Of a stretch of 64,000 nt of DNA, positions 2,588 through 63,736 are shown piece by piece. The position numbers were made by a program, and so were the translations under genes. The DNA is from an uncultured Verrucomicrobiae bacterium (GTDB lineage Bacteria; Verrucomicrobiota; Verrucomicrobiia; Chthoniobacterales; UBA10450). Each line of letters starts with the position of its first letter. The stretch's first letter is position 1. The stretch lies in the NCBI GenBank assembly GCA_963726745.1, contig CAVSDR010000003.1:928001-992000 (forward strand). Direction: 5' to 3'. The notes below the pieces were generated by a model, which did no database searches, was not told where the DNA came from, and saw nothing but the letters and a program-made list of their open reading frames with translations.

Positions 2588-4194
2588 ATGCAAACCAAAA
2601 CCTACCTCGGCCGTTACCTGCTCATGCTGGGCCAAAATAGCCAGCCGCTTCGCCTGCGCCGCGCCGGCCCGGGCGCGACCTACAAAGCCTTCGACTCGCA
2701 GGCCAAGCGCGAGGTTGCCCTCGTGGTCCTGCCCCTGGCGGAAGTAGCCACTGCGCTCCATGGACAACTGGCCGCGGAAGCGAACGCCGCGCAGCGCTTG
2801 CAGCACCCGAATATCCCCGCGCTCTACGATTTCGGGATCGAAGGCGACGAGATCGTTTACGCCTCCGAGTTGGTCGAGGGCCACAGCACTGCCACCTGGG
2901 TCAAAACGCAGAGCCCGCTGCCTATTCCCGCCGTCCTGCGGATCGCCGCGCAGGCTGTGAGCGCCCTCGGTGCGGCCGCTTTTCACGGCATTTTCCATCA
3001 CGCGCTCAACCCGCGAAACATCATCATCCTGCCGGTGGAAACGAATGAGTGGCCGCGGATCAAGGTGACCAATTTCCTCGGCCTGGCGCCGGTTTATTCG
3101 CCCGACCAGGCCGCGGCCGTGGGCACGACCTACGACCCGATCCACTTCGCCAGCCCAGAGCAACTGCACAGCGGCGAAGTCGACTTCGCCTCCGAGGTTT
3201 ACTCGTTAGGCAGCACGCTCTGGTTTTTGCTCAGCGGCACTTTGCCGCTCGGCGGAGCCGCCACCATCGAGACCGCGCAAGGCTTGCCCCCTTCCGTCCG
3301 CCGCCTCCTCCGCGCAATGCTCGCAGCTTCGCCGGCCGATCGCCCGGGCGACCCGCTGGCGCTGCAGGGAGCGATCGAACAAGCGCTGGCCGAAGTGGAA
3401 GCCGGGCCGGTCAGCCTCGCGGCCGTGGCGGCCGCGGAGCCAGTGGTCGTGCGCCCGCCGCGGCGGCCATTCCCCTGGCAGGCTCTGGCCGTGGCTGCGG
3501 TTTTGCTCGCGCTCGCCGGGATCGCGGCGCTCTTCTTTCGCGGAAGTAGCCAGCAACTTGGTGTGCCCGTAGGCGTGCCGGACGAAGTGGCCAACGCCGC
3601 CGCGGCCGCACCGCAGGCGACCCCGCCGCTCATCGCCGCGCAAGGCGTCCTGCAATCCACCGCTGCCGCCAGCGCGGCCGAGGACGAAGCTCCGCTCGAG
3701 GAAGCCCCGCGCGACGAAATGGCCATGCCAGAAGTTGCCGCCAATTCCTCCTCGGAACCCGAGCCCGCGCCGCCTTCCGAAGGTCCGGAGGCCACCGTCC
3801 CGGCCGCGCCCCAAATCGCCGTCGCCACCACCCCCCTCCCGAAGAGCCGATCATCGAGCCCACGCCCGCGCCCGCGCGCCGCACGGAAGTGCGGAAAGCC
3901 GAGCCGGTGGAGGAAGTGGAAGTCGCGGCGCGCCCTCGCGCCGTGCCGCCCAAAACCCGTCTGGCTGCGGGCAAACCCGCGCGTCGCGAACGCAGCGTCC
4001 GCGGCCCGGTGCGCGCGCAATACCTCGGCACATCGCCCGATGGCGAGATGATCTTTGGCCTCCCGAAAGACGAGCGCGGCTACGTCGCTGTGCCCCCGGC
4101 CTCGAGTCGGCAGGAACGCCGTCCCAGTCGCGAAGTGATCTACAAACCCGCTCCGGGGATGCCGGTTTTGCCGGCGCTCCCGGTGGACGAATAG
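2588..4194 (+). CDS. Membrane-anchored Hanks-type Ser/Thr pseudokinase 1 (frameshift near 3840)
   Basis: HPNIPALYDFG, FASPEQ and EVYSLG kinase scaffold, but VALV / HHALN / NFLG replace VAIK / HRD / DFG. TM helix and Pro/Ala/Glu-rich tail; C-terminus in ORF 3889..4194. Confidence 0.8.
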
Positions 4195-4338
4195 GCGCCG
4201 CGTTCGCGCCCGTAGCCTGCGGTCTTTTGGCTCGCGCCGGTTTTGCGTTATGGTGGGAACCTTGAGCACGATGGACCAGGGTCACGGAAACTCCGCCGCC
4301 ACCACGAGTTTCCCGCCGTCGCGGAGGCTGCTGCGCTG

Positions 4339-4647
4339 ATGCTCGGCTGGGGAAAAAAACGCGCACCGGTGACCGTGCGCCGCGAGATCACGATCCTGAA
4401 TAAATTCGGCATGCACGCGCGCCCCGCGGCCGAGTTTGTCCGCAAGGCGAACAGCTTTCGCTCCGAGATCTCGCTGGTTAAAGATGATCAGCGCTTCGCC
4501 GCCACCAGTCTCATCGATATTCTCCGCGCCAGCCTCGCGCAGGGTTCGCAGCTCACGATCGAAGCTCATGGCCTCGATGCCGAGGAAGCGGTCGCCGCGA
4601 TGGCCCGCCTCCTGGAGAAGTTCCAGGTCGAAGAGGCCAACGTCTAG
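4339..4647 (+). CDS. ptsH: HPr-family phosphocarrier protein
   Basis: ILNKFGMHARPAAEFV (His15 motif), Ser46-equivalent in ATSLIDIL, and AHGLDAEEAVAAM. Confidence 0.85.
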   Translation: MLGWGKKRAPVTVRREITILNKFGMHARPAAEFVRKANSFRSEISLVKDDQRFAATSLIDILRASLAQGSQLTIEAHGLDAEEAVAAMARLLEKFQVEEANV

Positions 4648-4730: not shown

Positions 4731-6396
4731 ATGCACGGGAAAACCTACCTCGGTCGCTACCGGGTGCGCCTCGATCGAATGGGACTTCCGATCGTGCTTC
4801 GCCGTGGCGAAGAGGAGGCCACGCTCCTGGCCGAGAATGCCGAGAGCGGGACGCTGGTCGCGGTGGAATTGCAGCCAGCCGGCGCGCACGCCACCACCCA
4901 ACGCGAACAACTTCGCACCGAGGCCCGCGCCGCGCAGCAGATCGCCCATCCGCACATCCCGCGGCTGCTCGACTTTGGCTTCGACGACGATCAGCTGGTC
5001 TACGTAACCGAATACCTCGAGGGCGAGACGGCGGCGGAGTGGGTCCGGGAGCACGGCGTGCTCCCGCCGGGCGTGGCCTTGCGCGTGGCCGCCCAGGTGG
5101 TCGATGCGCTCGTTGCGGCCAGCCTGCACGGGATCATTCACCACGCGATTCACCCGGGGAATCTCCTCTTCGTTTTCGAAGGCCAGGACCTCGCCGCGGT
5201 GCCGCAGGTAAAGGTCTTGAACTTCCTCGGCCTCGCCCCTTCGCTCGACCCGGCGGAAGGCGCCACCGCGCGCCGGATCGCTCCGGCGGATTTCGCCAGC
5301 CCGGAGCAATTTCAAAATGGCCCGATCACTTTCCGCTCGGAGATCTACTCGTTAGGCAGCACGCTCTGGTTTTTGCTCAAGGGCGTGCCGCTTACCGGAG
5401 GCGCCGCTGCGGTGGCGCAAGCGGTCGGCCTGCGCGCGCCGCTCCGCGCCCTGCTCAGGGAAATGCTCGCGGAAAATCCGGCCGAGCGCCCGTCCGATCC
5501 GGCCGCGCTCCAGCGCCAGATCGAGCATTGCCTGGCCGAGTTCGAGGGCCGGGACCCCGTCGCGCCGCGGCGTGCCGCGGTCCCGGTCCTGGCGAGGTGG
5601 GAGACGCCTCCGCCGCGCCGCCGCTCGGCCTGGAAACCGCTGGCGCTGGCCGCGCTCCTCCTTCTTTTGGGCGCGCTCGCGGTGGTTTTTTTTCGGCCGC
5701 GCCTCTCGCAGGAAATGGCTTTTTCCGCAAGCGCGCCCAGCCCGGCACCACTCGCTTCGCCGCCCGTCGAGACCGAGCTGCCGGCGCCCGATTTGCCGCC
5801 GCTCTCTGAGCTCGCGGTCGCGGAGGAAATTCCGGCCAGAGAAACAGACAGCACTTTCGCTGGTGCGACGCCCGCTGGCGAGGCCGCGCTCGCCGCAGCC
5901 GCGCCGATCGCCGAGCCGGAGAAGACTTCGCCGCCTCCTTCCTTCGCTCGAGCTCGCCTCGCCGCTTATTGCCGGCAATCTCGCAGGCGCGGCGGAGTCG
6001 GAAACCGAACTCCAGCTTCAGGTAGAACCGCTTCCTGCACCGCCCGCGCCACCCGCCGAGGGCCCACCGGAAAACGAGCCGCCGCCGTCGGCCCCCTCTC
6101 CCGCCCGCGAAGCAGCGCCAAGCCTCGAGATTCGCCGGGCGCTCCCGGTGGAGCGCGCGGAGAGCGCGCGCCCCAGGATTACCCTGGCCCGTCCGGCTGC
6201 GACCCCGCCGGAAGCCAAGCCCGCGCCCGCCCCAGCGCCCGCGCGTCGGCCCGCGGGCGGCTATCTTGGGGCCCCGCACAACCGCAGCAGTGTCGTCGGC
6301 CACATCTTCTTCCCCGTCTGGCGCGATCCTGCCCCCGAAGAAAAATCGCCCACGCCCACTCCCACGCCGTCACCCGCGGGCCGCACCACTCGTTAG
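4731..6396 (+). CDS. Membrane-anchored Hanks-type Ser/Thr pseudokinase 2 (frameshift near 5940)
   Basis: Paralogue of 2588..4194: HPHIPRLLDFG, HHAIHPGN, VKVLNFLG, FASPEQ, SEIYSLG. TM helix; Pro-rich tail continues in ORF 5572..6396. Confidence 0.8.
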
Positions 6397-7670
6397 GCAA
6401 CGTCGCGCGTCCGGGCGAGCCGCGCCTGCCGGTGCCCCAGCCAGAGACTAAGACCGCACCAAGCCGCCGCCAGCGGCGCGGCCGCAAAGGAAATGCCGGT
6501 CAGGCCCAGGCCCAGCCAGGTAAGCAGCGGATAAGACCAGGCACCGATCTGGTCGCCCGCACGATAGACAAACGTGTCCATGAAGCTCTTCGCTTTGTAT
6601 TTGTCCTCCCGGCGCAGGACGGTGAAGAGGACCTCGCGGGCCGGTCGCGAGAGCGCGAAATTCCCCGCGCGCCTTAGCACTTGGAAGAACGCCAGGAAGG
6701 CCAGCACCGGGGCAAAACCAAGGACCAGAAAACCGATCAGGCTAACGAATGGTAGCGCCGCCAGGGTCAGTCCCACGCCGAGCCATTTCAGGAGCCGGCC
6801 AGTGAGGAAAAGCTGCACCGTGATCGTGAGCACGTTCACCCAGACATCGAGCTGCGCGAAGAAAGCCGTGCGCGCCGCGCGGTCGGGAAATTGCGCCCCC
6901 ACGATCTCCGCCTGCTGGAAATAAACCAGCGTGCTCGTGATCGCGTGCAGGAGCATGAACGCGCAAATCCCGAGCAGGTAAGGCGAGCGCGAGACGTGCG
7001 TGATCCCGGACCAGAGCGACCCGCCGATCACCTGGTCACCCTGCGGAGCACGAGAATCGCGCGAGCTTCCGCCTGGGAAAAACCGCACCAGCCAGGCCCC
7101 GCTTTCCAGCATGGCCGCGGAGACCAGCAGGAGATTGGCCGTCCCGATTTGCCTAACGAGTGACGCCGTGAGCAATCCGCCTACGATCCCGCCGAGCGTC
7201 CCGCCCACGCTCACAAAACCGAAGAGCCGCTTCGCTTGCTCGTTGCTGAAGACGTCGGTCATGAAGGCCCAGAAGACGGTCACAACGAAGAGATTGAAGA
7301 CGCTCACCCAGACGTAGAAGGCCGCGCCGACCCAAAACGGCGGCGCGCCGGAGCGGAGCAGAAAATAAAAGCCGACGAGATTGAGCAAGAAGAAGCGGTA
7401 GGCCAGCGGGATGAAGCGCCGCCGCGACATCCGCGCGACGATCGCGGCGAAGAGCGCGTTGGCCACCAGCATCCCGGCGAGCGTGGCGGTGAAGAGCCAC
7501 GAGAGCTTCTCCACCCCGCCGGCCACGCCGATCTCGTCGCGAATCGGCCGGATGACGTAGTAGCTGCCGAGGACGATGAAATTGAAGACGAAAGCAAACC
7601 CGAGCGCGCGACGTTCCGCCGGCCGCACGTCGACCACCTTGCCCCACAACTTGTCGGCTAAATTCCCCAC
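6393..7670 (-). CDS. MFS transporter, nucleotide-translocase (TLC/NTT)-like
   Basis: SYYVIRPIRDE, WVSVFNLFVVTVFW, QAKRLFG, RPAREVLFT, KYKAKSFMDTFVYRAGD; about 12 TM helices. Confidence 0.8.
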   Translation of the reverse strand: MGNLADKLWGKVVDVRPAERRALGFAFVFNFIVLGSYYVIRPIRDEIGVAGGVEKLSWLFTATLAGMLVANALFAAIVARMSRRRFIPLAYRFFLLNLVGFYFLLRSGAPPFWVGAAFYVWVSVFNLFVVTVFWAFMTDVFSNEQAKRLFGFVSVGGTLGGIVGGLLTASLVRQIGTANLLLVSAAMLESGAWLVRFFPGGSSRDSRAPQGDQVIGGSLWSGITHVSRSPYLLGICAFMLLHAITSTLVYFQQAEIVGAQFPDRAARTAFFAQLDVWVNVLTITVQLFLTGRLLKWLGVGLTLAALPFVSLIGFLVLGFAPVLAFLAFFQVLRRAGNFALSRPAREVLFTVLRREDKYKAKSFMDTFVYRAGDQIGAWSYPLLTWLGLGLTGISFAAAPLAAAWCGLSLWLGHRQARLARTRDVA

Positions 7671-7676
7671 CCGCAC

Positions 7677-8904: not shown

Positions 8905-9963
8905 TCAGGGAGTGAAATCCTGGTCCTGCGGGAGCGAATGGCAAAATGCCGCCAGTAGCCGCGCGGTGTTCTCCAGGTCGACCAGTGACAACAGCTCGTT
9001 AGGCGTGTGCATGTAGCGCAGCGGCACCGAAAGCAGACCGGTCGCCATCCCGCCCCGCGAGAGCTGCATCACATTCGCGTCCGTGCCGGTGCCGCGCGCG
9101 GCCGAAGCCACTTGATACGGAATGTTCTCCGCCTTCGCTGCCGCTACCAGCAACTCGAAGACGCGCGGGTTGATGTTCGCCCCGCGGCAGATGATCGGCC
9201 CGTCGCCCACGCGGAAGTCGCCGGCTTTTTTCTTCTCGATATCCGGCGTGTCCGTCCCGTGGGCCACGTCGAGCGCGATCCCCACTTCCGCCTCACTCGA
9301 GAAAGCGCTCGTGACCGCGCCGCGCAAACCAATCTCCTCCTGCACCGTGGACACGCCGACCACGCCGGCCTCGGAGTTCCGCTCATGCAGGAGCCGCAAA
9401 ACTTCGGTCACGATCCAGGTGCCCATCTTGTTGTCGAAAGCCATCGAGACGGCGCGCTCGTTCGCCAGCTCCAGATACGGCTGCAGGAAAATCCCCGCGT
9501 CGCCGATCGCGACCAGCTCTTCCGCCTCTTCCTTGCTCGAGACGCCGAGATCAACGTAGAGATCCTTCACCTTCGGGACCTTCTTCTTGTCCTCATCGTC
9601 CATCAGGTGGATCGCCTTCCGGCCGATCACGCCGGGCACAAGCCCGTTCGCGGTCTTGATCGAGACCCGCTGCGAAGTCGCCACCACCGGGTCAACGCCG
9701 CCGATCGGCTCGAGGTGGAGAAAGCCTTTCTCGGTGATGTAATTGATGATGAACCCGATCTGGTCGCAGTGTCCCGCGAGCATGATCCGCGGCCGCGCGG
9801 CGGCGTTGCGCAGACCGAAGACGTTCCCCATCACGTCCGTGCGCACGTTCTCGCACCACGGACGCATGCGCTCGCGCACGAGCTTCTGCACGTCGTATTC
9901 GTAACCGGACGGGCTCGGGGTTTCGACCAGGGTCTTGAGGAAGGCTTTGCTTTCGGGATTCAT
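8905..9963 (-). CDS. M42-family metallo-aminopeptidase
   Basis: PSPSGYE, LAGHCDQIG, AFDNKMG, VQEEIGLRGA, GTDA and RYMHTPNE motifs. ATG at 9963; the upstream extension in the ORF track is spurious. Confidence 0.9.
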   Translation of the reverse strand: MNPESKAFLKTLVETPSPSGYEYDVQKLVRERMRPWCENVRTDVMGNVFGLRNAAARPRIMLAGHCDQIGFIINYITEKGFLHLEPIGGVDPVVATSQRVSIKTANGLVPGVIGRKAIHLMDDEDKKKVPKVKDLYVDLGVSSKEEAEELVAIGDAGIFLQPYLELANERAVSMAFDNKMGTWIVTEVLRLLHERNSEAGVVGVSTVQEEIGLRGAVTSAFSSEAEVGIALDVAHGTDTPDIEKKKAGDFRVGDGPIICRGANINPRVFELLVAAAKAENIPYQVASAARGTGTDANVMQLSRGGMATGLLSVPLRYMHTPNELLSLVDLENTARLLAAFCHSLPQDQDFTP

Positions 9964-10001
9964 AAAATGGGCGCCGAACTTGTCGGCTAATTTTCTCTGG
10001 T

Positions 10002-11093
10002 TTACCACCGCGCCGCGGCGCCATCGGCGATCCGGCAAACGAACGCGCCCGTGGCCAGGCCGCGCGGCTGGTGGAATTGTTTCGTTAATTCCTCCGCGAC
10101 CGCTTCCGCCTGCTCCACCCGCACGAGCGCGACCGTCCCGCCGCCAAAGCCGCCGCCGGTCAACCGCGCGCCGAGCACGCCCGGGAGGGTGCGCGCGAGC
10201 GTGACCAGCTCGTCCACTTCCGGCGCGCTGTTCTCGAAGTTCACCTGCGAACTTTCGTGCGACGCATTCATCAGCGCGCCCATCGCTGCCACGTCGCCGC
10301 GCTCCAGCGCCTCGAGCGCGCGCCAGACGCGGTCGTTCTCGCCCACGATGTGCGCCGCCCGCCGGTAGAGCACGTCGCCTAACGAGCCGTGCGCATACTC
10401 CAGCGCGTCCGGCGTGAGCTCGCGCAGGCTCTCCAGCCCGAGCGCTTCCGCGGCCGCGGAACACTCCTCGCGCCGGGTATTGTAAAGGCTCTGCAGGAGG
10501 TTGTGCTTCGCGCCCGACTCCGCGATCACGAGCGCGCAATCCGCCGGGAAAGCGAAGGTCCGCACCTCTTCGCTCTGGCAGTCGAAATAGACGACATGAT
10601 CGCGCTTCCCGAAGACGGAGGTCGCCTGGTCGAGCAGGCCCGAGCGCACGCCGACGAATTCGTTTTCCGCGCGCTGGCAAAGCTTCGCCACCTCCAGCGG
10701 CGGCAGGCGAAATTCATTCAGCAACATCAGCAAACCCGCGGTCGCGACCTCCAACGCGGCCGAGCTCGAAAGCCCCGCGCCCGCCGGGACATCGCCGGTC
10801 ACTTCGGCATCGAACCCGCGCACCTCGCAGCCGGCGCGCTGGAATTGCTCGATCACCCCGAGCGGGTAGTTCGCCCAGCGCTGCTCTTCCTGCGGCGCGA
10901 TCTCGCGCAGGGAAAAATGCACCCGGCTGCGCGCGTTCTTCGAAGTCAGGATGACGTTGTCGTCCTGTCGCAGGATCCCCGCGACCGTCAGCCCGCGATC
11001 GATCGCCGCCGCCAGGACCACGCCCTGGTTGTAATCGGCGTGGTTCCCGAGCAATTCGACTCGACCGGGCGCGTAGGCAGCAGCTGGACTCAC
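10002..11093 (-). CDS. galK: Galactokinase
   Basis: APGRVELLGNHADYN, VPAGAGLSSSAA, AENEFVG..GLLDQ, GARLTGGGFGG. Confidence 0.9.
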   Translation of the reverse strand: MSPAAAYAPGRVELLGNHADYNQGVVLAAAIDRGLTVAGILRQDDNVILTSKNARSRVHFSLREIAPQEEQRWANYPLGVIEQFQRAGCEVRGFDAEVTGDVPAGAGLSSSAALEVATAGLLMLLNEFRLPPLEVAKLCQRAENEFVGVRSGLLDQATSVFGKRDHVVYFDCQSEEVRTFAFPADCALVIAESGAKHNLLQSLYNTRREECSAAAEALGLESLRELTPDALEYAHGSLGDVLYRRAAHIVGENDRVWRALEALERGDVAAMGALMNASHESSQVNFENSAPEVDELVTLARTLPGVLGARLTGGGFGGGTVALVRVEQAEAVAEELTKQFHQPRGLATGAFVCRIADGAAARW

Positions 11094-11185
11094 GCGCGCA
11101 CCATTCCACATCCGCGCCCCGCGCGCCGGAAAACGTCGGCTAAATCGCGCATTGAGCGGAGCCGCCCGGGGACGCATCGTCCCGC

Positions 11186-15485: not shown

Positions 15486-15534
15486 GCTTTCCATCGTCTA
15501 ACGAATCGAGCCCGGCTGGTGGCCGTGTCGTCGG

Positions 15535-50640: not shown

Positions 50641-50753
50641 CCAGCACGCTCACTACTGCAGTCATCCCGAGCACAGCGCCGCGGGGTCGAGAGACCTCGC
50701 GCGCTGGGCGCGGTTTTTGACCTCATCGTTTGCCCGCCGAAACTACCGGCGAC

Positions 50754-52559: not shown

Positions 52560-52570
52560 CTAATTTTCCC

Positions 52571-53221: not shown

Positions 53222-53250
53222 GCAAAAAAATTAGCCAGCAAGATGAAGCC

Positions 53251-54042: not shown

Positions 54043-55076
54043 TTTTCCTGCGCGCCGAACTTTGCCAGCGGCTTCACCAGGTTCCCCGGCAACGGCCGCA
54101 CCCGATCGTAGATCCGCTCCGCAATCGGCTTCGCCACCAGGTAACCGGCGGCGAACATTTCCATCCGCGCATCCAGGTTATCGATGTAGTTGAGCGCCAT
54201 CGCTTCCGGTGTTTTCGGCGCCACCGGCGACCCAAACTGCGGCTCCCCATGATGCGCGCCGATCAAGTGCAACAGGTGCAGCCGAACGTCCTCCGAAGCC
54301 GGTGCGAGCGCGCTCCAAGTCTTCCAGTTCTCGCCCGACTGCAGCTTTCGCCAGAGCGAATTGACCAGCTCCATCCCGATCGAGATGTGGCCCATGAGTT
54401 CGCCCCGCTCATCGAAACCCATGGTAAAGCCATTCTCCGGCAGGTGATTTTCCCAGAGCTTGCCGCTGTCGTGAAAGAGGACCCCGGCGATGAGCAGGTC
54501 GCGGTTGAGCTGCGGGTAGAGCGGCACGATCGCCTCGGCCGTGCGCAGCATCTGCGCGGTGTGCTCCACCAGGCCGCCGCGCCGCGCGTGATGGTAGCTT
54601 CGCGCACCGGCGGTGCGCCGGAAGCGGTCGCCAAAGTCCGCCAGGAGCGCTTCGCAAAGCGCGCGCAAGCGCGGATCGCCGATCGTGACCACGCGCTCGA
54701 TGATAAATTCCCAATCCGCTGTCTGTCGGGCGCGTAACTCCGCCGGGCCCGCGAGCAGGTCCGCCGTCTCTTCACTCGTTAGGCGGCGCATTTTCCACTG
54801 TCGCGTCTCCAGCCCGAACTGCGCATGGAGGGCGAAATCGCCCGCGACCTCGATGAACTCCGAAGCCTCGAGGGCGGCGCACGCGCGGTAGTCGGCGTGG
54901 TCGCTCCAAACGCGCAGCGTCATCCGATCGCACGCGTCCGCCAGCGAGAGCTCGCAGTACGGCTTCCCGTCGCGGCTCGCCTTTGGCTCGGAGGCGTTGA
55001 TCTGCACATGCACCCGCGCGGAAACGATCCCGCTCTGGGTGCCGCGGCGGACTTCGCTCAGGCTTAAGAGATCCAC
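54039..55076 (-). CDS. OB-fold + HD-domain nuclease, YhaM/Cbf1 family
   Basis: N-terminal GKPY OB-fold, YHHA..GGLVEHT, FHDSGK, GHI, AHHG, PKTPEA...IDNLDA. Confidence 0.88.
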   Translation of the reverse strand: MDLLSLSEVRRGTQSGIVSARVHVQINASEPKASRDGKPYCELSLADACDRMTLRVWSDHADYRACAALEASEFIEVAGDFALHAQFGLETRQWKMRRLTSEETADLLAGPAELRARQTADWEFIIERVVTIGDPRLRALCEALLADFGDRFRRTAGARSYHHARRGGLVEHTAQMLRTAEAIVPLYPQLNRDLLIAGVLFHDSGKLWENHLPENGFTMGFDERGELMGHISIGMELVNSLWRKLQSGENWKTWSALAPASEDVRLHLLHLIGAHHGEPQFGSPVAPKTPEAMALNYIDNLDARMEMFAAGYLVAKPIAERIYDRVRPLPGNLVKPLAKFGAQEN

Positions 55077-55095
55077 GCGCGCCGTTTCTGCCGGC

Positions 55096-55626
55096 TTAAT
55101 TCTTGGCCACGCCGATCACGCCGCAGGCCAGGCGGCCACCGGCATCGCCCGTCGGCTGCGACTTCAGGTCGTCGGCTTTCTCGTGCACGATGATTGCGTG
55201 CCCGACGATCGCGTCGTCGCCGCTCAGCTTCATCATCTTGTCGGTTAATTCCAGGTGCGCCTTGCCGCTGGCATCGGCTTCCAGGTTGCCCATGTCACCC
55301 GTGTGGCGCTTCTCCGCATCGTGCCCGGCGTGCGCATCTTTGGTGGGATTGAAATGTCCACCGGCCGAGGTCGCATCAGGGGCCGAGCAATCGCCGAATT
55401 CATGGATGTGGAAGCCATGCTTCCCGGCGGTGAGCCCGCTCACATCCGCGACCACTTTCACGCCGTCGGCCGTCTTGGTGAAGGTGACCGTGCCGAGGAC
55501 CTTGCTGCCGGCGGTCGGATGCAGGACAGCGATGGCTTTCTCAGTGTCGCCAGCCGAGGCGAGCTGCGGCGCGAGGCCGAAGGCGGAGAGAGCGAGAGCC
55601 GAAACGAGGAGGGTTTTCGTGGTCAT
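55096..55626 (-). CDS. sodC: Cu/Zn superoxide dismutase
   Basis: Signal peptide; HGFHIHE.GDC, SAGGHFNP, H.GDMGN, IVHE..DD, GGRLACGVI. Confidence 0.95.
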   Translation of the reverse strand: MTTKTLLVSALALSAFGLAPQLASAGDTEKAIAVLHPTAGSKVLGTVTFTKTADGVKVVADVSGLTAGKHGFHIHEFGDCSAPDATSAGGHFNPTKDAHAGHDAEKRHTGDMGNLEADASGKAHLELTDKMMKLSGDDAIVGHAIIVHEKADDLKSQPTGDAGGRLACGVIGVAKN

Positions 55627-55680
55627 GCCCCGAGCATACACCCGCACCGCCGGGCTGCGCAAAATCTGCCAGCGCTTTGC

Positions 55681-56565
55681 TTAATCAATCAGCCGCTGCT
55701 CGATCCCGTCGTAGGCGTCGATCCGCCGATCGCGCAGGAACGGCCAATGCGTCCGCTGCTCGTCGATCCGACCCCACTCCACATCCGCTGCGATGATCTC
55801 CTCCCGGTCGACGCTCCCCTTCGCGAGGATCTCGCCGCTCGGCGCGCAAAGAAAACTCTGCCCCCAAAATTCCAAGCCCGGCCCGCCGACTGGCGCCTCG
55901 TGGCCGACCCGATTGACCGCCGCGACGAAGCAGCCGTTCGCGATCGCGTGGCTCCGCTGCATCGTCTCCCAGCTCGAGTGCTGCGCCACGCCGTACTTCT
56001 CCTTCTCACCGGGATGCCAGCCGATCGCCGTGGGATAAAATAGGAGCTGCGCGCCGCGCAACGCGGTCAACCGCGCCGCTTCCGGATACCACTGGTCCCA
56101 GCAGACACAGACGCCGATGTTCCCGCGCTGCGTCGCCCAGGCCTTGAAGCCGAGATCGCCGGGCGTGAAGTAAAACTTCTCGTAGAACGACGGGTCATCC
56201 GGGATGTGCATCTTGCGATACTTCCCCATGAGCGAGCCGTCGGCGTCGATGATCGCGGCGGTGTTGTGATACAGCCCCGCGGTTCGTTTCTCGAAGAGCG
56301 AGGCCACGATCACCACTTTGTGCTCGCGCGCGACCGCGCTCAGCGCGTCGGTCGACGGCCCGGGAATTTCTTCCGCGAGCGCGAAGTTCGCGTGATCCTC
56401 CGACTGGCAAAAATACTGCGAGCGAAAGAGCTCCGGCAGGCAGACGATCTCCGCCCCTTCCTCCGCCGCCTGGCGAACGAAGCGCACTGCCTTCTCCAGG
56501 TTGGCCGCGGGTTCCACCCCGCAGCTCATCTGCACGAGCGCGACCCGCGAACTTGCCGCGGCCAT
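55681..56565 (-). CDS. aguB: Carbon-nitrogen hydrolase, N-carbamoylputrescine amidase-like
   Basis: LPELF..YFCQ, YRKMHIPDDP.FYEKFYF.PGD, VCWDQWYPEAAR, YPTAIGW. Confidence 0.85.
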   Translation of the reverse strand: MAAASSRVALVQMSCGVEPAANLEKAVRFVRQAAEEGAEIVCLPELFRSQYFCQSEDHANFALAEEIPGPSTDALSAVAREHKVVIVASLFEKRTAGLYHNTAAIIDADGSLMGKYRKMHIPDDPSFYEKFYFTPGDLGFKAWATQRGNIGVCVCWDQWYPEAARLTALRGAQLLFYPTAIGWHPGEKEKYGVAQHSSWETMQRSHAIANGCFVAAVNRVGHEAPVGGPGLEFWGQSFLCAPSGEILAKGSVDREEIIAADVEWGRIDEQRTHWPFLRDRRIDAYDGIEQRLID

Positions 56566-56567
56566 CG

Positions 56568-57212
56568 TTACTTCACCGAATCAGCCGGCACGATCTTCAC
56601 GCTCTCGAGCGCGACTCGATTCACCGGCTTGCTGCGCTCGCCGCCGTTGCTCATCGTTACCGGCACGTTCGCCAGCTTATCGAGCACGTCGTCGCCTTTG
56701 ATGATCTTCCCGAAGGTGGTGTATTGCCCGTCGAGCTGCGCCACTTTGCCGAAGCAGAGGAAGAACTGGCTCCCGGCCGAATCCGGATCGCTCGAGCGCG
56801 CCATCGAAAGCACTCCGCGCTCATGCGCCTTTTTGTTGAATTCCGCCTTCACCTTGTAGCCCGGACCGCCCGTGCCCCAGCGGCTTTCGGCCGCGGGATC
56901 TTTCGTGAGGGGATCGCCGCCCTGCGCCATGAAGCCCTTGATGATCCGATGGAACGCGGTCCCGTCGTAGAAGCCTTCCTTCGCGAGCTTCTTGAAATTT
57001 TCCACCGTCTTCGGGGCCACGTCCGGCCAGAACTCGGCGACCATTTCTCCTTCGCTGGTCTTGATGATGGCGACTTCTTTGGCGGCGGGACTGGATTCTG
57101 GCGTCATGGTTGGTTTGGCTGTGGTGGAAGGTGATGGACTGGCCTCCTCGCTGCGGGCATTCGTCACTCCAAGAGCAAGCGCCGCGAGGCAACCGAGCAA
57201 GACGGATTTCAT
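56568..57212 (-). CDS. Secreted cyclophilin-type peptidyl-prolyl isomerase
   Basis: APKTVENF, FHRIIKGFMAQGGDP, LSMAR..DPDSAGSQFF, LDGQYT.FG. Confidence 0.93.
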   Translation of the reverse strand: MKSVLLGCLAALALGVTNARSEEASPSPSTTAKPTMTPESSPAAKEVAIIKTSEGEMVAEFWPDVAPKTVENFKKLAKEGFYDGTAFHRIIKGFMAQGGDPLTKDPAAESRWGTGGPGYKVKAEFNKKAHERGVLSMARSSDPDSAGSQFFLCFGKVAQLDGQYTTFGKIIKGDDVLDKLANVPVTMSNGGERSKPVNRVALESVKIVPADSVK

Positions 57213-57244
57213 GTTGTGACCACTTCCACGAAGTGCGGGCGAAG

Positions 57245-58216
57245 TCACGCGGGATATCGGCCGGGCTGCCAGAGGCCGGCGATCTCCGGCAAACCGAGCG
57301 CGAGGTTCATGCACTGCACCGCCTGGCTGGCCATGCCTTTCCCGAGATTATCCAGCGCCACCAGGATCGCCGCCGTGCCGTTGGCGCTGACAAACGCGAC
57401 GTCGGCGAAGTTGCTCCCCGCGACCGCGCTCACGCGCGGGCTCCCTTCCACGATCCGGACAAACGGCCGGTCGCGGAAGACCGTCGCTACCCGGGCGGCA
57501 AGATCGACCGCCTCCGGCAGCTGGCATTGCACCGTCGCGAAAATCCCGCGCACGAACGGCCCGCTGTGCGGCACGAAGGAAAACGTCCCCTTGATCTCGT
57601 TTGCCGACATCATCAGCGCCACCTCCCGGTCATGCTGGTGCGCGAGCATCTTGTAAGCGCGGTAATCGCCCGCGCGCGTCGGATGATGCGTCCCGGCCGC
57701 CGCGACCGTGCCGCTGCCACTCGAGCCGGTGACCGCGCTCGCCGCGATGAAGCCGACCTCCAGCCCGCGCAACGGGAGCAGCGCCAGCTGCAAGGCGGTG
57801 GCAAAACATCCCGCGCTGGCGATCCGGCGCGCGCCTGCGAGCTGCTCGCGATTCCATTCCGGCAAGCCGTAAACGAAGCGCTCGTCGAAGCGAAAATCCG
57901 CCGCGAGATCGATCACGAGCGCGTGGTCCGGCAGGTGGCTTTCGAAAGTAGGCAGCAACTTCGCCAGCTCGCCATGCGGCAAGGCCGAGAAAACCACCGG
58001 TTGCTCCGCCTGCGCAAAATCCTTCCACGGGATCTCGCTCTCAAAATTTCCCGGCACCACCCCGAGCAGATTCGGGTGCGCTTCCGCGAACGGCTTGCCG
58101 CCTAACGAGCGCGACGTCCCGCGCACGCTGGCCACGTTCGGATGCAACGCGAGCCAGCGGAGCAGTTCGCCGCCGCCGTAACCGGAAGCGCCGAGAATGG
58201 CGACGTCGAGCTTCAT
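57245..58216 (-). CDS. argC: N-acetyl-gamma-glutamyl-phosphate reductase
   Basis: ILGASGYGG.EL, ALPHG, IDLAADFR, YGLPE, GCFAT, DNLGKG. Confidence 0.93.
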   Translation of the reverse strand: MKLDVAILGASGYGGGELLRWLALHPNVASVRGTSRSLGGKPFAEAHPNLLGVVPGNFESEIPWKDFAQAEQPVVFSALPHGELAKLLPTFESHLPDHALVIDLAADFRFDERFVYGLPEWNREQLAGARRIASAGCFATALQLALLPLRGLEVGFIAASAVTGSSGSGTVAAAGTHHPTRAGDYRAYKMLAHQHDREVALMMSANEIKGTFSFVPHSGPFVRGIFATVQCQLPEAVDLAARVATVFRDRPFVRIVEGSPRVSAVAGSNFADVAFVSANGTAAILVALDNLGKGMASQAVQCMNLALGLPEIAGLWQPGRYPA

Positions 58217-59265
58217 TTGCTGCGCAGGTGCGGCCGCAATTTCTCGAGCACGAAATCGCCCAGTTGTTTCGCGTTCGTGCGCGCGTTCACCGCGGGCAGG
58301 CCTAACGACTCCACGAAACGCGTGCCCACGCGGTTGTCCGTCGCCGGGCCGGTGACGACGTCGACGCTCAAGCCAAAAGCGTCGCGAAAATGCGTTACCG
58401 CACCGGCCACGCCCACCGGATCGTTCGCGCAGAGCACGTGCAGCTTCCCCCAGGCCTGCAGCTCCGGGTCCTTCAAGATCGTCTGCACGCCGTACTCGCC
58501 CATGATCCCGTCGCCTGTTTCTGCGATGATCAAGTCCACGTCGCGCGCCGCCAGTTCGCTCAAGATCACGCGCGCCAGCCGCCCCGAAGTGTCCGGCCCG
58601 GTGCAGGCCACGCCTGCATCGGTGAAATCCAGGACCGCATCCGCGCCGTAGTCGCGCATCGAGAGGATGTCGCGTTGCAAACTCACGCCGGTCAGCTTCG
58701 CCCCGCCAACCTTGTAGCCTTCCTGCGAAAGTCGCCGGACGAGTGCACAAGCCGCATGCGTTTTCCCCGCGTTCATGCAGGTGCCGGCGATGTAAACCAC
58801 CGGGACCGGCTTCGCGTCCGGCCGGCCCTTGATCGCGGCCGACTCGATCGTGGCCGGCTGCCCAATGCGGCTGCCAAATTCCGGGAAGAGCAGCACCTGC
58901 CCGAGAATCTCCACCTCGAACGGCTTGCCCACATCGGGGCTGCCGGAGATCGCCTGCCCGATCACGCCACCGACGTTCAGGAGATTGAGCGCGTCGCCTG
59001 TTTTCACCGCGGTCGGCATCACGCCTTCGTAGCCTTGGAGCGCGTTGCGATGGCCGAGCGCGCCCACGATCACGTCGCCATCATGGAGCACGCTCATGCG
59101 CCCGTGCACATCTTCGAGCTGGTTGTAGACGCTCTTCTCGCCGTGCACCCGGCCGACTACCACCGCGCCCGGTCGCACCTCGATCTCGTCGGCTAAAGTC
59201 ACCTGCCGCCCGAGCCGCAAGTTCCGCGTCACGGAGGCAATTTTGTCCAGGTGCGTGCGGATCAT
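58213..59265 (-). CDS. DUF1611-like P-loop protein inside the arg operon
   Basis: IAGTCMNAGKT (Walker-A-like), GAKLTG, DFTDAG, AETGDG; 4-bp overlaps with argG and argC. Confidence 0.7.
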   Translation of the reverse strand: MIRTHLDKIASVTRNLRLGRQVTLADEIEVRPGAVVVGRVHGEKSVYNQLEDVHGRMSVLHDGDVIVGALGHRNALQGYEGVMPTAVKTGDALNLLNVGGVIGQAISGSPDVGKPFEVEILGQVLLFPEFGSRIGQPATIESAAIKGRPDAKPVPVVYIAGTCMNAGKTHAACALVRRLSQEGYKVGGAKLTGVSLQRDILSMRDYGADAVLDFTDAGVACTGPDTSGRLARVILSELAARDVDLIIAETGDGIMGEYGVQTILKDPELQAWGKLHVLCANDPVGVAGAVTHFRDAFGLSVDVVTGPATDNRVGTRFVESLGLPAVNARTNAKQLGDFVLEKLRPHLRSK

Positions 59266-60446
59266 GGTTCGTTCCTCTTCATCGCGAGCATCTGCGGCAC
59301 GCCAAAAATTTTCCCGTAGGCCGCCGCTTCCGCGCCGGTCCAAAACGACGTCCCCTCGCCGTAGCTCGCGATGTCCGCGCGCATCAAGCTATGCGGCGAG
59401 CGCACGCCTTCGACCGTGAAACTCCGCGGACTTAAACGCAGCCGCACCTCGCCGCTGACCATCGCCTGGCTGGATGCGAGGAAAGCCTCGAGGTCGCGCG
59501 CCAGCGGATCGAAGAATTGCCCTTCGTGCAAGAGCGAGCCGTAGAGATTGCCGAGGTTTTCCTTCCAGAACATCTGCTTCCCGGTGAGCACGAGCTTCTC
59601 CAGCTCGCGATGGGCCGCGATCAATAAATGCGCCGCCGGCGCTTCAAAGCCGACCCGCCCTTTGATCCCGAGAATGGTGTCGCCGAGATGAATTCCGCGC
59701 CCGATGCCGAACGAGCGGCCAAGCGCATTCAGTCGCTCGATGATCGCAACCGCGTCCAACATCTCGCCGTCTAATTTCGCCGGCACGCCCTGCTCGAATG
59801 CGATCACCAGCGTGTGCGACGGCGTCGCCGGGTCGATCGCGCCGCCGGGATAAGCCTCCTCCGGGAGATGCTGCCACGAGTCATGCGTTTCCTTGCCGCC
59901 GATGCTCGTGCCCCACATCCCTTCGTTGAAGCTGTATTGCTCCACCTTCTCCGGAAACTGGAAGCCGCGGGCATCGAGGTAGGCGCGCTCTTCCGCGCGA
60001 GTCGGCGCGAGGTCGCGGATCGGCGTGAGAATTTCCAAGCCCGGCGCGAGCGTGCGAAAGGCCACGTCGAACCGCACCTGATCGTTGCCCGCGCCGGTGG
60101 AGCCGTGCGCGAGCGCGCCCGCGCCGATCTCCTGCGCATAGCCGACCACACGCCGCGCCTGGCAGACGCGCTCCGCGCTCACCGAAAGCGGATACAAGCT
60201 GCCGCGCAGGACGTTTCCGAAAAGGAGAAAACGGATGTAATCGCGGAAGAGTTCCTCACGCGCATCGATCGTCCGGTGCGAGGCCGCGCCCAGTTTGCCA
60301 GCGAGTTCTTCGATCCGCTGGAGCTCCGCGGCGTCGAAGCCGCCGGTGTTGACCGTGACCGTGTGGACTTCGCGGCCCTGCTCGCGCAGCCAGAGGACGC
60401 AGTAGGAAGTGTCGAGGCCGCCGGAGAAAGCGAGGAGGGTTTTCAT
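59262..60446 (-). CDS. argG: Argininosuccinate synthase
   Basis: LAFSGGLDTS, HGSTGAGNDQVRFD, GIKGRVGFEAP. Confidence 0.95.
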   Translation of the reverse strand: MKTLLAFSGGLDTSYCVLWLREQGREVHTVTVNTGGFDAAELQRIEELAGKLGAASHRTIDAREELFRDYIRFLLFGNVLRGSLYPLSVSAERVCQARRVVGYAQEIGAGALAHGSTGAGNDQVRFDVAFRTLAPGLEILTPIRDLAPTRAEERAYLDARGFQFPEKVEQYSFNEGMWGTSIGGKETHDSWQHLPEEAYPGGAIDPATPSHTLVIAFEQGVPAKLDGEMLDAVAIIERLNALGRSFGIGRGIHLGDTILGIKGRVGFEAPAAHLLIAAHRELEKLVLTGKQMFWKENLGNLYGSLLHEGQFFDPLARDLEAFLASSQAMVSGEVRLRLSPRSFTVEGVRSPHSLMRADIASYGEGTSFWTGAEAAAYGKIFGVPQMLAMKRNEP

Positions 60447-61759
60447 TTCCAATCGAAAAGGTCGGCGGTTTTCTGCGCGAGGAACTGCCGGCGCTCCGCC
60501 AGCCAATCCCGGCTGCGCGACAGCCCGTCGGCTAACGAGTCATAATCCGGCGTCTCGGCCGCGGAGGATTCTGCGGAAAACTTTCCGCGCTGGAGCTGTT
60601 GCGCGACCTGCTGGTAAGCGTCGCGGAAGGGCGTGCCTTCTGCCGCCAACCGGCAGGCTTCACGCGCCGCCTGGAGCTCGTCGGTGCAGGCCGCCGCGCA
60701 AGCTTGCTGGTTAATTTCGAGGCCCGGAAGAAGATGCGTCAGCACGCGGAAAAGCTCTTCGCCTTTCGCAGTGATCTCGAGCAGCGGCGCCTTCAGCAGT
60801 TGCTGGTCGCGGTGATAACTCGAGGGCAATCCGCCCGCGAGTTGCCCGAGCAAGCCGGCCAGCCCGCGCAGTTCGCGGCAGCGCGCTCGCGCCAGCTCGA
60901 GCACGTCGGGGTTCCGCTTCTGCGGCATCAAACTCGAGCCAGTGGTGAAAGCATCCGGCAGCCTAACGAATCCATATTCCTCCGTGCTCCAGACGAGCAA
61001 ATCCCAAAGCGCCTTCTCCAGCGTGCCGCCGGCGGAAGTGATCCACGCCGCCAGCGCTTGCTCGTGGCGCCCGCGGCTGTTCATCACATCGATCGGGCTG
61101 CGCTGCGCGCGCGAAAAGCCGAGCAGCTCGGCGCTGCGCTCGCGGTCGAGCGGGACGGGCGATCCGAAGCCCGCGGCCGCGCCCAGCGGGGAACGATCCA
61201 GCCGCTGCCAAAGTGCTGGCAGTTGCTCCAATTCCTCGAGCAAACCTTCCGCAAAAGCGGCACCCCACATTCCCCAACTCGAAGGCATCGCCGGCCGCAT
61301 ATGGGTGTAGCCCGGCAGGACGATCGCCCCATGCTTTTGCGCGAGCGCGAGAAAGGCCGCGGCGCAGCCGTGCAGCGCCTCGCCCAGGTCGAGCAGGCGC
61401 GCGCGCATGAGCAAGCGGAGCGCGGTTTGCACCTGGTCGTTGCGCGAGCGCGCGAGATGAATCCGGCGCCCGGTCGCGCCGAGCTTGGCGGTCAAGGCGG
61501 CTTCCAGCGCAGTGTGCCCATCTTCCTGCTCGGGCGTGATTGTGGGCGGATTTTCTTGCAGCGTCCGCAATTCCCTAACGAGTGCTTTCGCTTCCGCTTC
61601 CGGGAGCAGGCCGGTCTCGCCGAGCATGCGTGCATGCGCCGCGCTCGCTTCCGCATCAAAGGGCAGGAGCGCGAGATCGGTCACGCGATCGTTCCCGACG
61701 GTGAACGCATGGAGCTGTGCATCGAGCGGCAGGTCCTTGGCCCAAAGCGACTCAGACAT
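60443..61759 (-). CDS. argH: Argininosuccinate lyase
   Basis: EDGH, HLARSRNDQV, PGYTHM, TGSSLMPQKRNPDVLE, YHRD.Q, PFRDAY. Confidence 0.95.
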   Translation of the reverse strand: MSESLWAKDLPLDAQLHAFTVGNDRVTDLALLPFDAEASAAHARMLGETGLLPEAEAKALVRELRTLQENPPTITPEQEDGHTALEAALTAKLGATGRRIHLARSRNDQVQTALRLLMRARLLDLGEALHGCAAAFLALAQKHGAIVLPGYTHMRPAMPSSWGMWGAAFAEGLLEELEQLPALWQRLDRSPLGAAAGFGSPVPLDRERSAELLGFSRAQRSPIDVMNSRGRHEQALAAWITSAGGTLEKALWDLLVWSTEEYGFVRLPDAFTTGSSLMPQKRNPDVLELARARCRELRGLAGLLGQLAGGLPSSYHRDQQLLKAPLLEITAKGEELFRVLTHLLPGLEINQQACAAACTDELQAAREACRLAAEGTPFRDAYQQVAQQLQRGKFSAESSAAETPDYDSLADGLSRSRDWLAERRQFLAQKTADLFDWK

Positions 61760-62822
61760 GCGCCACCTCCGCTTGCGCGACGCGCGCGAAATACTCACGG
61801 GCCAGCTGCGCGTAAAAACCGGCGCCGGCGTCGAGTTCCGAGAGAAGCAAATACTCGTTAGGCCGATGGCTCCGGTGAGTGTCGCCGGGCCCGGCCTTGA
61901 CTGCCGGGAGATCACGCAGGAAAGCCCAGTCCGACGCGGTCGCAGAACCGATCGACTCACGCCGGCCTGCGGCCGCGAGGGCGGCCTGCACGATCGCTTC
62001 TTCGGGATCAGTCCCGACCGGTTCGTAGCGCATCGAATGCACCGCGACTTCGCTGTCCAAAGTGCCGGCTATTTTGGCGGCAACTTCGGCCTGCTGGAGA
62101 TTCGGCGTGGTCCGCAGATCGACGAAGAATTCGCAGGTGTCCGGCACCTGATTCCGCGCCAGGCCTCCGTGGATTTGCGTCGTCTGCGCACGGGTTTCGC
62201 CAAGAAGCGGGTGCGGCTCGAAGCGCATCTCCGCGAGCCTGGCGATGTCGCTCGCAGCGACATGGATTGCGTTCCGCCCGAGCCCCGCGTGGGCCACGTG
62301 CGCCGACTCCCCGCGCGCGGTGCACTGCAACAGGAGCATCCCGCGCTGGGCGGTGCACACTTCGAGCGCCGTCGGTTCGCCCACGACCGCGGCATCGAGC
62401 GGGCCGAGGAGCGGTTTGACTGCGCGGATCCCGTCGCCGCCGCGCTCCTCCATTTCCACAAAAGCGAAAGTGACGCGTCCCTCGAGCGCTTCCGCGCGCA
62501 GAGCGCGGGCAGCCAGGATCATCGCGGCCACGCAGCCCTTGGCGTCGTTCGCGCCCAGGCCGGTCAGTTTGCCGTCGACCCAGCGCGGCTGCAGTGGATC
62601 ACTCGACCAGCCTTCGCAGGCCGGGACAGTGTCGAGGTGACTAACGAACAGAAGATGCGGGCGCGCCGCCGCGCCGAGGCTGAACCAGATGCTCGCACCG
62701 GCGCGCTGGACCTCGAAGCCTTCGTCGCGCAACTGCGCGCCCAGCTTGTCGGCTAATTCCGCTTCGCTCCCCGAAACGCTCGGAGTGGCCACGAGGAACT
62801 CCAGGAGGGCGGCCGCATTCAC
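61752..62822 (-). CDS. argE: M20 deacylase (acetylornithine / acetylcitrulline deacetylase)
   Basis: SHLDTVP, GLGANDAKG, EE, VGEPT, GPGD..RSH.PNE; located in the arg operon. Confidence 0.85.
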   Translation of the reverse strand: MNAAALLEFLVATPSVSGSEAELADKLGAQLRDEGFEVQRAGASIWFSLGAAARPHLLFVSHLDTVPACEGWSSDPLQPRWVDGKLTGLGANDAKGCVAAMILAARALRAEALEGRVTFAFVEMEERGGDGIRAVKPLLGPLDAAVVGEPTALEVCTAQRGMLLLQCTARGESAHVAHAGLGRNAIHVAASDIARLAEMRFEPHPLLGETRAQTTQIHGGLARNQVPDTCEFFVDLRTTPNLQQAEVAAKIAGTLDSEVAVHSMRYEPVGTDPEEAIVQAALAAAGRRESIGSATASDWAFLRDLPAVKAGPGDTHRSHRPNEYLLLSELDAGAGFYAQLAREYFARVAQAEVAHV

Positions 62823-63736
62823 GGGCTCGATTCGTTAGGCCGCTGCGCCACCACCATCGTGCCGCTGCCTTCGTTGGTGAAGACCTCGGCGAGGATGGCA
62901 TCGGAAAGCAGGCCGGAAACGAGGTGAACGCTCGGGACGCCGTCGGACAAGGCGTCGCGCGTGGCCGCGATCTTTGGTTTCATCCCGGTTTGGATCGCGC
63001 CGCTCGCCTCGAGTTCGTTCAGTTTCGCCAAATCGACCAGCGGCAGGAGGCTGCGCTCGTCATTTGGATTCGCGAGCAGGCCGGGCGCGCGCAGGACAAA
63101 GAAAAGTTTCTCCGCGCCTAACGAGGAGGCGACCGCGGCCGCGACGGAGTCGGCATTGGTGTTAAGAATTTGCTGTTTGTCGTCCACGGTGAAAGGCGCG
63201 ATCACCGGGACGTAGTGCGCGCTGATCAAGTGACGCAGGAGTTGAGGACGGACTTTCTCGATGTCGCCCACGCAACCGAAGTCGACCGTCTGGCCATCGA
63301 TCTCCACCGGAGGGCGGCGCCGACTGCGAATGAGTCCGCAGTCCTGCCCGGACAAGCCCACCGCCGGCAAACCGGCCGCCTGCAGGTCGGCGATCAAGTT
63401 CATCTGCGCCTGGCCTTTCAAGGCCATCTTCGCGACCTCGAGTGCTTCGGGCGATGTGATCCGCCGGCCGCCGACCTTGCTCGTGCTCACCCCGAGCTTT
63501 TCGCACAGCGCGTCCGTCGCCGGGCCGCCGCCGTGCACGATCACCAGCGGAATGGCAAAGCTGGAGAGCAACGCGAGCTGGCCGCAGACGCTCCGGCGCA
63601 GGGTGTCATCGGCCAGAATGTCGCCGCCGATTTTGACCACGAAAGGTTTGTCGCGAAAGGCGCGCACGTATTTGGCGGCGTCCTTCAGCGGATCGAATGG
63701 GGAGGAGTGCGGCATCGTCGTTAGTTCAGCAACCAT
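62819..63736 (-). CDS. argB: Acetylglutamate kinase
   Basis: FVVKIGG, IVHGGG, GRRIT, LNTNAD, GMKPK, EVFT.EGSGT. Confidence 0.93.

Follow-up and report, generated by a model that had tools for sequence, protein, structure and literature searches.

Hyper-abundant, non-palindromic DNA words in one family of uncultured soil Verrucomicrobia

Word A in the window and in the source genome

The 64-kb stretch analysed here, referred to as the window, spans positions 928001-992000 of contig C3 in the genome of an uncultured Verrucomicrobiae bacterium (G000), and it carries at many places a 9-nt word, GCCTAACGA, which we call word A. In its fuller form the word reads GCCTAACGAGT with A or T three bases further on, and its core is CTAACGA. 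A first-pass annotation had listed 29 exact copies, 14 on the + strand and 15 on the - strand, and our word count returns the same copies at the same coordinates. Those on the + strand lie at 7151-7159, 10377-10385, 11687-11695, 12781-12789, 20271-20279, 24482-24490, 29356-29364, 44599-44607, 47139-47147, 51515-51523, 58100-58108, 58300-58308, 60961-60969 and 63116-63124. Those on the - strand are found at 3203-3211, 5349-5357, 6390-6398 (where the TAA of the word is itself the stop codon of the open reading frame (ORF) 6393-7676(-)), 8996-9004, 12519-12527, 19250-19258, 21904-21912, 35088-35096 and 35909-35917 (both within the MnmE gene), 41362-41370, 43194-43202, 53215-53223, 54776-54784, 61855-61863 (in an M20/ArgE-like gene) and 62832-62840. 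Shuffles of the window that preserve dinucleotide composition contain on average 0.19 exact copies, with a maximum of 2.

A scan for the core brings the number of CTAACGA strings in the window to 41, the additional twelve having the positions and two-letter prefixes reported previously. Five carry the prefix GG (GGCTAACGA; 6740-6748(+), 11438-11446(-), 20888-20896(-), 21742-21750(-) and 60530-60538(+)), three CC (CCCTAACGA; 19028-19036, 52337-52345 and 61573-61581, all +), two GA (GACTAACGA; 22719-22727 and 62639-62647, both +), one GT (GTCTAACGA; 15496-15504(+)) and one AA (AACTAACGA; 63718-63726(-)). The GC content of the window is 0.62-0.67.

The G000 assembly comprises 3,406,779 bases in 7 contigs at 64% GC. 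GCCTAACGA occurs in it 1312 times, at a density of 0.385 per kb on each contig; the division between strands (681 +, 631 -) agrees with the lack of strand bias that had been claimed from the window. A third-order Markov model of the 3.41-Mb genome predicts 19.7 copies, giving a ratio of observed to expected (O/E) of 67, and at every word length from 7 to 12 nt word A and its sub- and superstrings rank highest by O/E. GCCTAACGAG, with 820 copies, is the commonest 10-mer of the genome and GCCTAACGAGT, with 321, the commonest 11-mer. The commonest 12-mer, GCCAACGCCAAC (146 copies), is a tandem repeat of the hexamer GCCAAC.

Alignment of the 1312 copies reveals preferences downstream of the word: 820 have G at +9, 560 have T at +10 and 910 have A or T at +13. 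Information content is close to zero outside -2 to +13. Since the flanks are flat beyond +13, word A is not a mobile or repeat element. The one-off variants fall mostly at positions 1-2, together with G>A at position 7, the core CTAACGA being strict; at position 1 there are 240 copies with G, 123 with A and 80 with T, and at position 7 there are 121 with A.

Genes were taken from a rough caller of our own, which gives 2705 genes and 85% coding sequence and makes errors, for example at 46.7-49.2 kb of the window. By these calls, 939 copies lie wholly within genes, 140 cross a gene edge and 233 are intergenic, an intergenic share of 18% (233/1312) in a genome that is approximately 15% non-coding. 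Elements of the repetitive extragenic palindrome or miniature inverted-repeat type have conserved flanks or a hairpin and are chiefly intergenic, features that word A does not display. The four sense frames described from the window all recur genome-wide in called genes: TCG TTA GGC (S-L-G) in 426 copies, CTA ACG (L-T) in 217, CCT AAC GA (P-N-D/E) in 205 and GTT AGG (V-R) in 91. The two frames that bear a stop codon hold no copies in the G000 gene calls.

The enrichment also persists under nulls built from the genes' own codons. Twenty synonymous-codon shuffles yield 20.2 ± 4.2 copies (maximum 30) compared with the 939 genic copies observed, a 46-fold excess, and ten shuffles of codon order yield 6.4 ± 2.3. 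The signal therefore resides on the DNA, as the first-pass annotation had argued in placing the force there and not on the protein, and protein sequences are shaped too. The word is moreover non-palindromic, GCCTAACGA having TCGTTAGGC as its reverse complement. We conclude that word A is a real DNA-level word and that the original observation is confirmed.

Word A is depleted in one island of foreign-looking DNA. The largest desert in G000, at C7:60030-85007 together with 49300-58752 of the same contig (GC 0.58), encodes glycosyltransferases, a Wzy-type ligase, DegT aminotransferases and sugar-nucleotide enzymes, and has the character of a surface-polysaccharide island. It holds 2 copies where approximately 14 would be expected.

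Relatives, orthologous sites and words B and C

To gauge word A in other genomes, each was scored against its own count of the reversed word. In the genus of G000, word A exceeds this control in all 34 genomes, at densities of some 43 to some 709 copies per Mb, the values for G001, G008 and G042 resting on genomes flagged as unpublished. Across the family, represented by 121 genomes of at least 80% completeness that span 30 genera, word A stands at 3 or more times its control in 89 genomes, at 10 or more times in 35 and at no more than 1.5 times in 8, and the density ranges across the 30 genera from 4 to 1355 copies per Mb. The maximum is reached in G091, with 4336 copies in 3.2 Mb. In the sister families of the order (15 families, 135 genomes, of which G265 is unpublished), counts of 0-40 were obtained, always below the reversed control, so that the trait is specific to the family. 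Outside the family (f2-f16, the same 135 genomes), GCCTAACGA is several-fold rarer than its reversed control, from which it appears that word A arose from a rare background.

Within the family, G152 carries CTAACGA cores that lack the GCC prefix. In the word-poor G002, 254 kb of sequence revealed residual word A (11 copies compared with 0.7 expected) and no alternative strong word. As an aside, the ArgG of a record titled Holophaga sp. metagenome-assembled genome is 72% identical to that of the window, and its contig may be mis-binned.

The history of individual sites was followed in query-anchored codon alignments of ten genes of the arg cluster from G000 and 11 further genomes of the genus. 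These contain 44 distinct core sites, one of which is listed twice because of overlapping ORFs. Half of them (22) are present in a single genome; 5 are shared by two genomes, 2 by three, 7 by four and 5 by five, and one each by six, seven and ten. Of the 16 core sites in G000, 11 are unique to it, and at these the orthologues differ at many bases, amino-acid changes included; for word A sites confined to G000, the orthologues typically differ at 4-7 of the 9 bases. Two copies in the window are of this kind, that at 62832 (G000 only, among 11 aligned genomes) and that at 63116 (G000 only, among 12). Six sites are exclusive to the clade G013/G044/G048/G047; of the window copies, the exact one at 60961 is shared with this clade only and the CC-prefixed variant at 61573 is also shared with it. 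The oldest site seen is that at 61855, whose core is kept in 10 of the 12 aligned genomes. At shared sites, degraded forms of word A occur in the word-poor genomes G003, G005, G021 and G045. A tree of seven proteins places G000 beside the word-rich clade, with weak support (0.72), and from this position the density of word A roughly follows descent while independent gain continues. The alignment of orthologues that the first-pass annotation had proposed thus exposes lineage-specific gain, retention and decay of word A sites. We conclude that the words are written and retained by a directional process at the level of the DNA, which weakens or changes its word from one lineage to another.

Masking of word A in G000 brings to light a second word, of approximately 17 nt, with the consensus S-A-W-n-K-Y-G-Y-Y-G-G-C-T-A-A-W-T, which we call word C. 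A loose form of the pattern has 1506 matches in G000, 1239 of them with A at position -5. The string GCTGGCTAA has 479 copies in the unmasked genome and 459 after masking of word A, when its O/E is 41. Word C uses both strands and several frames. The shorter GYYGGCTAAWT (11 nt) occurs 539 times in G000, 238 times in G011, 113 in G015 and 60 in G017, with at most 45 copies in the other 29 genomes of the genus. The unpublished G054, from a different genus, has 96, and among the 120 family genomes other than G000, 115 have no more than 25. Word C is thus nearly private to G000 within the family. The orthologues of word C sites depart from G000 at 7.9 of 17 bases, the background being 4.3.

The pattern scan of the window returns 25 loose matches, two of which are the GG-prefixed word A variants at 21742 and 60530. 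The remaining 23 are listed as word C. Those on the + strand are at 7647-7663, 9976-9992, 11129-11145, 15739-15755, 21218-21234, 23892-23908, 24377-24393, 27670-27686, 32414-32430 (with weak flanks), 32706-32722, 35617-35633, 52549-52565, 59182-59198, 59760-59776 and 62742-62758, the last two being orthologous sites specific to G000. Those on the - strand are at 1518-1534, 12898-12914, 23153-23169, 32906-32922, 35971-35987, 37959-37975, 49303-49319 and 53229-53245.

A third word, (C)AAGATCGACA(A), or word B, is the top word of G077, a genome in which word A shows no excess. There 154 kb contain 59 copies of AGATCGAC (31 +, 28 -), which fall into five frame classes and have flat flanks. Of the 121 family genomes, 31 have word B at 100 copies per Mb or more, the highest density being the 1604 per Mb of G071 (4653 copies); word B stands at some 2-12 per Mb in the genus of G000. 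In a 263-kb sample of G071, words A and B head the list of 9-mers by O/E (58 and 40). Four genomes (G054, G068, G142 and G147) have neither A nor B. None of the three words is palindromic. A fixed arrangement between words was considered and set aside, as the spacing of A to C in G000 and of A to B in G071 looks independent.

Other strings are over-represented in some of these genomes. In G077 a string around AACACGGCCAA is in excess (ACACGGCCA, 17 copies compared with 1.2 expected) and may be another word. In an 87-kb sample of G152, strings around GTCATCCCGAGC (CATCCCGAG, 12 compared with 0.9) and GGGATCCC (12 compared with 2.1) are in excess, and these could be a repeat element or further words.

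The first-pass annotation had proposed a survey of related genomes for dialects of the motif. Word A is indeed common to the family at varying strength; words B and C are not dialects of it, however, but unrelated sequences. Overall, the words form a small, lineage-variable vocabulary, hyper-abundant, non-palindromic and strand-symmetric, in one family of uncultured soil Verrucomicrobia. Words B and C, their co-residence with other words and the family-wide survey of word A are new here.

Candidate readers and proposed DNA uptake

Profile searches of G000 identify ComEC (193 bits) and DprA (252 bits), the gene for the latter adjoining ssb, together with 3 secretins, 10 T2SSE ATPases and 18 N_methyl motifs. 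One each of the last two lies in the window, at the places where a PilT-family ATPase (48090) and a prepilin-like gene (43597) had been proposed. The T2SSE match, to the PilT/PilB family, covers 48360-48935(+) within the ORF 47196-49250. The prepilin-like gene occupies 43597-44151(-), with an N_methyl match of 27.6 bits at 44050-44118 and an N-terminus reading ...RAFSLLELAVAIVIIGVL. Both genes are given as context, any role of the prepilin-like one as a reader of the word being putative. ComEC is found in 33 of the 34 genus genomes, word-poor ones included.

Some neighbouring genes deserve description in their own right. In the region 38765-44151(-), a 1653-residue protein with 11 Calx-beta repeats is encoded immediately downstream of the prepilin-like gene. 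At 46689-49250, the + strand ATPase gene is overlapped by a long - strand ORF whose C-terminal half carries ornithine/arginine decarboxylase domains; our caller merged the - strand ORF here wrongly. An HrpB-type helicase at 22593-25112(-) is divided between two ORFs some 240 bp apart (HrpB_C at 22593-23468; DEAD, Helicase_C and HA2 at 23712-25112), which may reflect a frameshift, a pseudogene or a gene-call problem. In the region 53068-55076, an N6/N4 DNA methylase gene (+, 53068-54039) converges on an HD-domain gene (-).

G000 also has two paralogous minor-pilin-like clusters. Both encode an N_methyl protein, several small proteins and a DUF7305 protein of some 500 residues; one of the clusters is divergent from pth-rpsF-ssb-dprA. 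The genes for the minor-pilin-like and DUF7305 proteins lie at C6:622916-626130 and C3:584383-586933. All three minor-pilin-like clusters of the genome are located inside CTAACGA deserts of 10-14 kb (C6:622688-634302, C3:576523-586943 and C3:1022429-1035984).

Sequence-specific DNA uptake is described as established in two proteobacterial families only (PMC7811141, 10.1101/2025.10.24.684340). For the uptake signal sequence (USS) of the Pasteurellaceae, the minor pilin ComN/PpdA is predicted as the receptor (PMC12616744), and the DNA uptake sequence (DUS) of the Neisseriaceae occurs in dialects and is read by the minor pilin ComP (PMC3630211, PMC3868556; further DUS/USS literature, PMC1626085, PMC3458573). 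Among the papers listed for Verrucomicrobia with uptake or transformation terms, a report of uptake specificity was not found, and none of the listed literature describes word A; published occurrences of the word strings, among the matches listed, appear to be parts of unrelated sequences.

Word A resembles the USS, a 9-nt core with preferences in its flanks, in its short non-palindromic core with weaker flanking preferences, in being mostly genic (939/1312) in several frames with the strands equally used, and in its restriction to a family whose genera differ in word type. It differs from the USS in belonging to another phylum, in its unrelated sequence and in having an uptake role that is as yet putative. 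Moreover, the words that succeed each other here, or share a genome, are unrelated, whereas the USS comes in two similar types that are not known to occur together. The likeness to the DUS, a word of 10-12 nt, lies in hyper-abundance on both strands (9-mer 1312, 10-mer 820), in the presence of type IV pilus genes and in a strength and form that vary among related species. The variants in this family, however, are unrelated words, whereas DUS dialects differ by 1-3 nt. Most word A copies are coding, and inverted pairs, which many copies of the Neisseria DUS form in terminators, are almost absent. Cyanobacterial HIP1 (GCGATCGC) is likewise a hyper-abundant word of unsettled function throughout coding DNA; unlike words A, B and C, however, it is a palindrome.

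Uptake bias coupled to recombination is the only described process known to us that gives non-palindromic 9-12-mers at such density and with such properties. Since the kit of competence genes is also present, we put first the reading that the words are uptake-sequence-like self tags produced by sequence-biased uptake in natural transformation, which by analogy with the DUS and USS we consider plausible, though somewhat short of probable. A surface or pilus-associated receptor would prefer fragments bearing the word, and recombination of these fragments would spread copies through the population, a form of molecular drive. Such a directional force would write words into ordinary genes, where they would be retained for long periods and would decay where the force weakens; a change or exchange of receptor would bring in new words. 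Uptake as the force and pilins as the readers are the putative components of this scheme. The uptake role first suggested for word A is partly supported: the properties proposed for it came out DUS/USS-like, but a ComP_DUS-type match above the cut-off was not found, and word A is not the only word of its genome.

Several observations weigh against the uptake reading. Among the competence genes that the first-pass annotation had named, ComEC, DprA and pilins are present, but the ComEA-like HHH_3 match is marginal (29.3 bits, covering 30 of the 65 positions of the profile) and the best G000 match to ComP_DUS (PF16732), at 21.9 bits, falls below the cut-off of 27.3. This match is to a GspG-like pilin, C3:432425-432568. 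ComEC and DprA families are found also in most of the well-known control genomes, Escherichia coli included, so that these genes are not specific. Inverted pairs of word A are nearly absent: of the 1305 gaps, 8 bring two copies within 60 bp of each other, and 2 of those pairs are inverted. Unrelated words coexist, at high density in G000 (A and C) and with both A and B at 100 or more copies per Mb in 8 of the 121 family genomes, and word C is long; these are departures from the known uptake systems, and we know of no DUS or USS organism with two unrelated words. In G002 and G003, both word-poor, ComEC moreover has an undivided reading frame. In G005 it is split into two frames (G005:C12:409293-409950) and may be a pseudogene. 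Loss of competence was therefore rejected as the cause of low density, there being no clear relation between the two.

The search for a reader among the DUF7305 proteins tells in the same direction. For the dprA-side protein, orthologues with 67% identity or more are confined to G015, G018 and G002, genomes in which word C counts are raised; it was rejected as a word reader. It was not found in G017 (94% complete, 60 word C copies) and is unmatched in G054 (96 copies), G011 and G009 being too incomplete to judge. An orthologue in G068, a genome with neither word A nor word B, is in two frames (G068:C2:250632-252120) and may be a pseudogene. The paralogue at C3:585488-586933 was rejected as the reader of word A: orthologues of 59-72% identity occur in many genera, but the protein was not found in the near-complete, word-A-rich G064, G070, G071, G013 and G024, and a link to word A is not seen.

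Alternative explanations and significance

Because of words B and C, a reader unconnected with uptake has to be taken seriously as a rival, for instance a chromosomal protein that binds DNA. The words would then be in-situ sites of abundant sequence-specific chromosomal proteins, of the nucleoid or of a defence or repair self-label, each under weak selection where it stands and with no part left for uptake; we judge this explanation rather less likely than uptake. Two unrelated words in one genome would be expected from two proteins, and word C, at some 17 nt and with a two-part consensus, is like a typical protein operator. The spacing, too, is footprint-like. Among the 1305 gaps between word A copies, 11 are of 100 bp or less compared with 50 expected, 33 of 200 bp or less compared with 98, and 177 of 500 bp or less compared with 231; close neighbours of word C are similarly scarce (91 compared with 129, at 200 bp or less). 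Strand symmetry and depletion in the foreign-looking island fit binding in situ and uptake equally well. The difficulty is that weak selection at each site must yield a 46-fold excess over synonymous shuffles, and a candidate protein has not been identified. The sites of parS, matS, Noc and SlmA number tens each, and we know of no chromosomal protein with a 9-17-nt site in more than 1000 copies in coding DNA at a cost in amino acids.

A by-product of sequence-specific mutation or repair bias, with no reader at all, is a distinctly improbable explanation; an example would be very-short-patch (VSP)-type repair tied to a lineage-variable methyltransferase or nuclease and turning near-matches into matches. 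The patchy, lineage-variable words, with unrelated ones co-resident, recall mobile restriction-modification specificities; the one-off variants cluster at few positions (1 and 7), and the methylase gene at 53068-54039 lies in the window itself. New sites nevertheless differ widely from their orthologues (at 7.9/17 bases for word C and 4-7/9 for word A), and differences at so many bases are not explained by repair of single mismatches. Known sites of VSP repair and of methylases are, moreover, far shorter than 9-17 nt, and the known effect of VSP repair on word counts is few-fold, compared with approximately 60-fold here.

Polar signals for recombination or segregation, such as Chi, the FtsK-orienting polar sequences (KOPS) or the architecture-imparting sequences (AIMS), merit very little credence. 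Like these, the words are over-represented, non-palindromic, chromosome-wide and depleted in the island; Chi and KOPS, however, are strand-polarised with respect to replication, and here polarity was not seen. Cumulative strand walks of word A along the four largest contigs (0.4-1.2 Mb, 2000 permutations) lie within the permutations for three (p = 0.57, 0.21 and 0.87) and are marginally wider than them on C4 (p = 0.03), and those of word C give p = 0.55-0.96. Counts in 50-kb bins of G000 reveal no replichore pattern for word A. Word A is evenly divided between the strands in each genus genome, and its copies in the 121 family genomes total 42328 forward and 42267 reverse. Chi-type enrichment is in any case far below an O/E of approximately 67. 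The first-pass annotation had named polarity as the property that would reclassify the motif, and the Chi/KOPS reading is contradicted by its lack.

An artefact of assembly or base-calling, or a remnant of a small mobile element, can be dismissed almost outright, as word A recurs in all 121 family genomes, in assemblies of 2 to 800 contigs, at orthologous codon positions in several of them, keeps reading frames open and has unconserved flanks, and nothing was found in favour of this reading. Contigs from a soil sequencing run that are 95-99% alike to the window reproduce the copies they cover. This run, designated X1, has depth in 20 of 30 bins, with thin, short contigs that cover one copy of word A (58300-58307, 8 of its 9 letters) and two of word C, all unchanged except for a C>T at 59767 in the copy at 59760-59776, where the consensus is Y; the copy at 59182-59198 is identical. 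As this run may be the source sample, it gives weak support at most.

Beyond any single word, the genomes may be labelled by several unrelated words of 9-17 nt, each in thousands of copies among the genes, that are gained, swapped and lost between genera and even between species, two being active in a genome, a proposal that we regard as possible, if rather doubtful. If it is true, multi-word labelling would imply exchangeable readers, either several uptake receptors or another reader of DNA, and a lineage that is among the most abundant in soil would possess a form of self-labelling that goes further than the DUS/USS model with its single word.

If the uptake reading is correct, these bacteria would provide a third case of uptake specificity, with unrelated sequences, and self-preferring exchange would have evolved repeatedly and would operate in soil, an environment rich in free DNA. 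The gradient in word density, together with the replacement and co-residence of words, amounts to a natural experiment in which comparative genomics could be used to search for the reader, and would allow the rate at which such a drive writes and erases sequence to be measured, amino-acid changes in housekeeping proteins included. As sharp taxonomic markers, the words can serve in binning and in the recognition of foreign DNA in these genomes, and they would be an obvious inclusion in constructs for the genetic manipulation of this difficult group.

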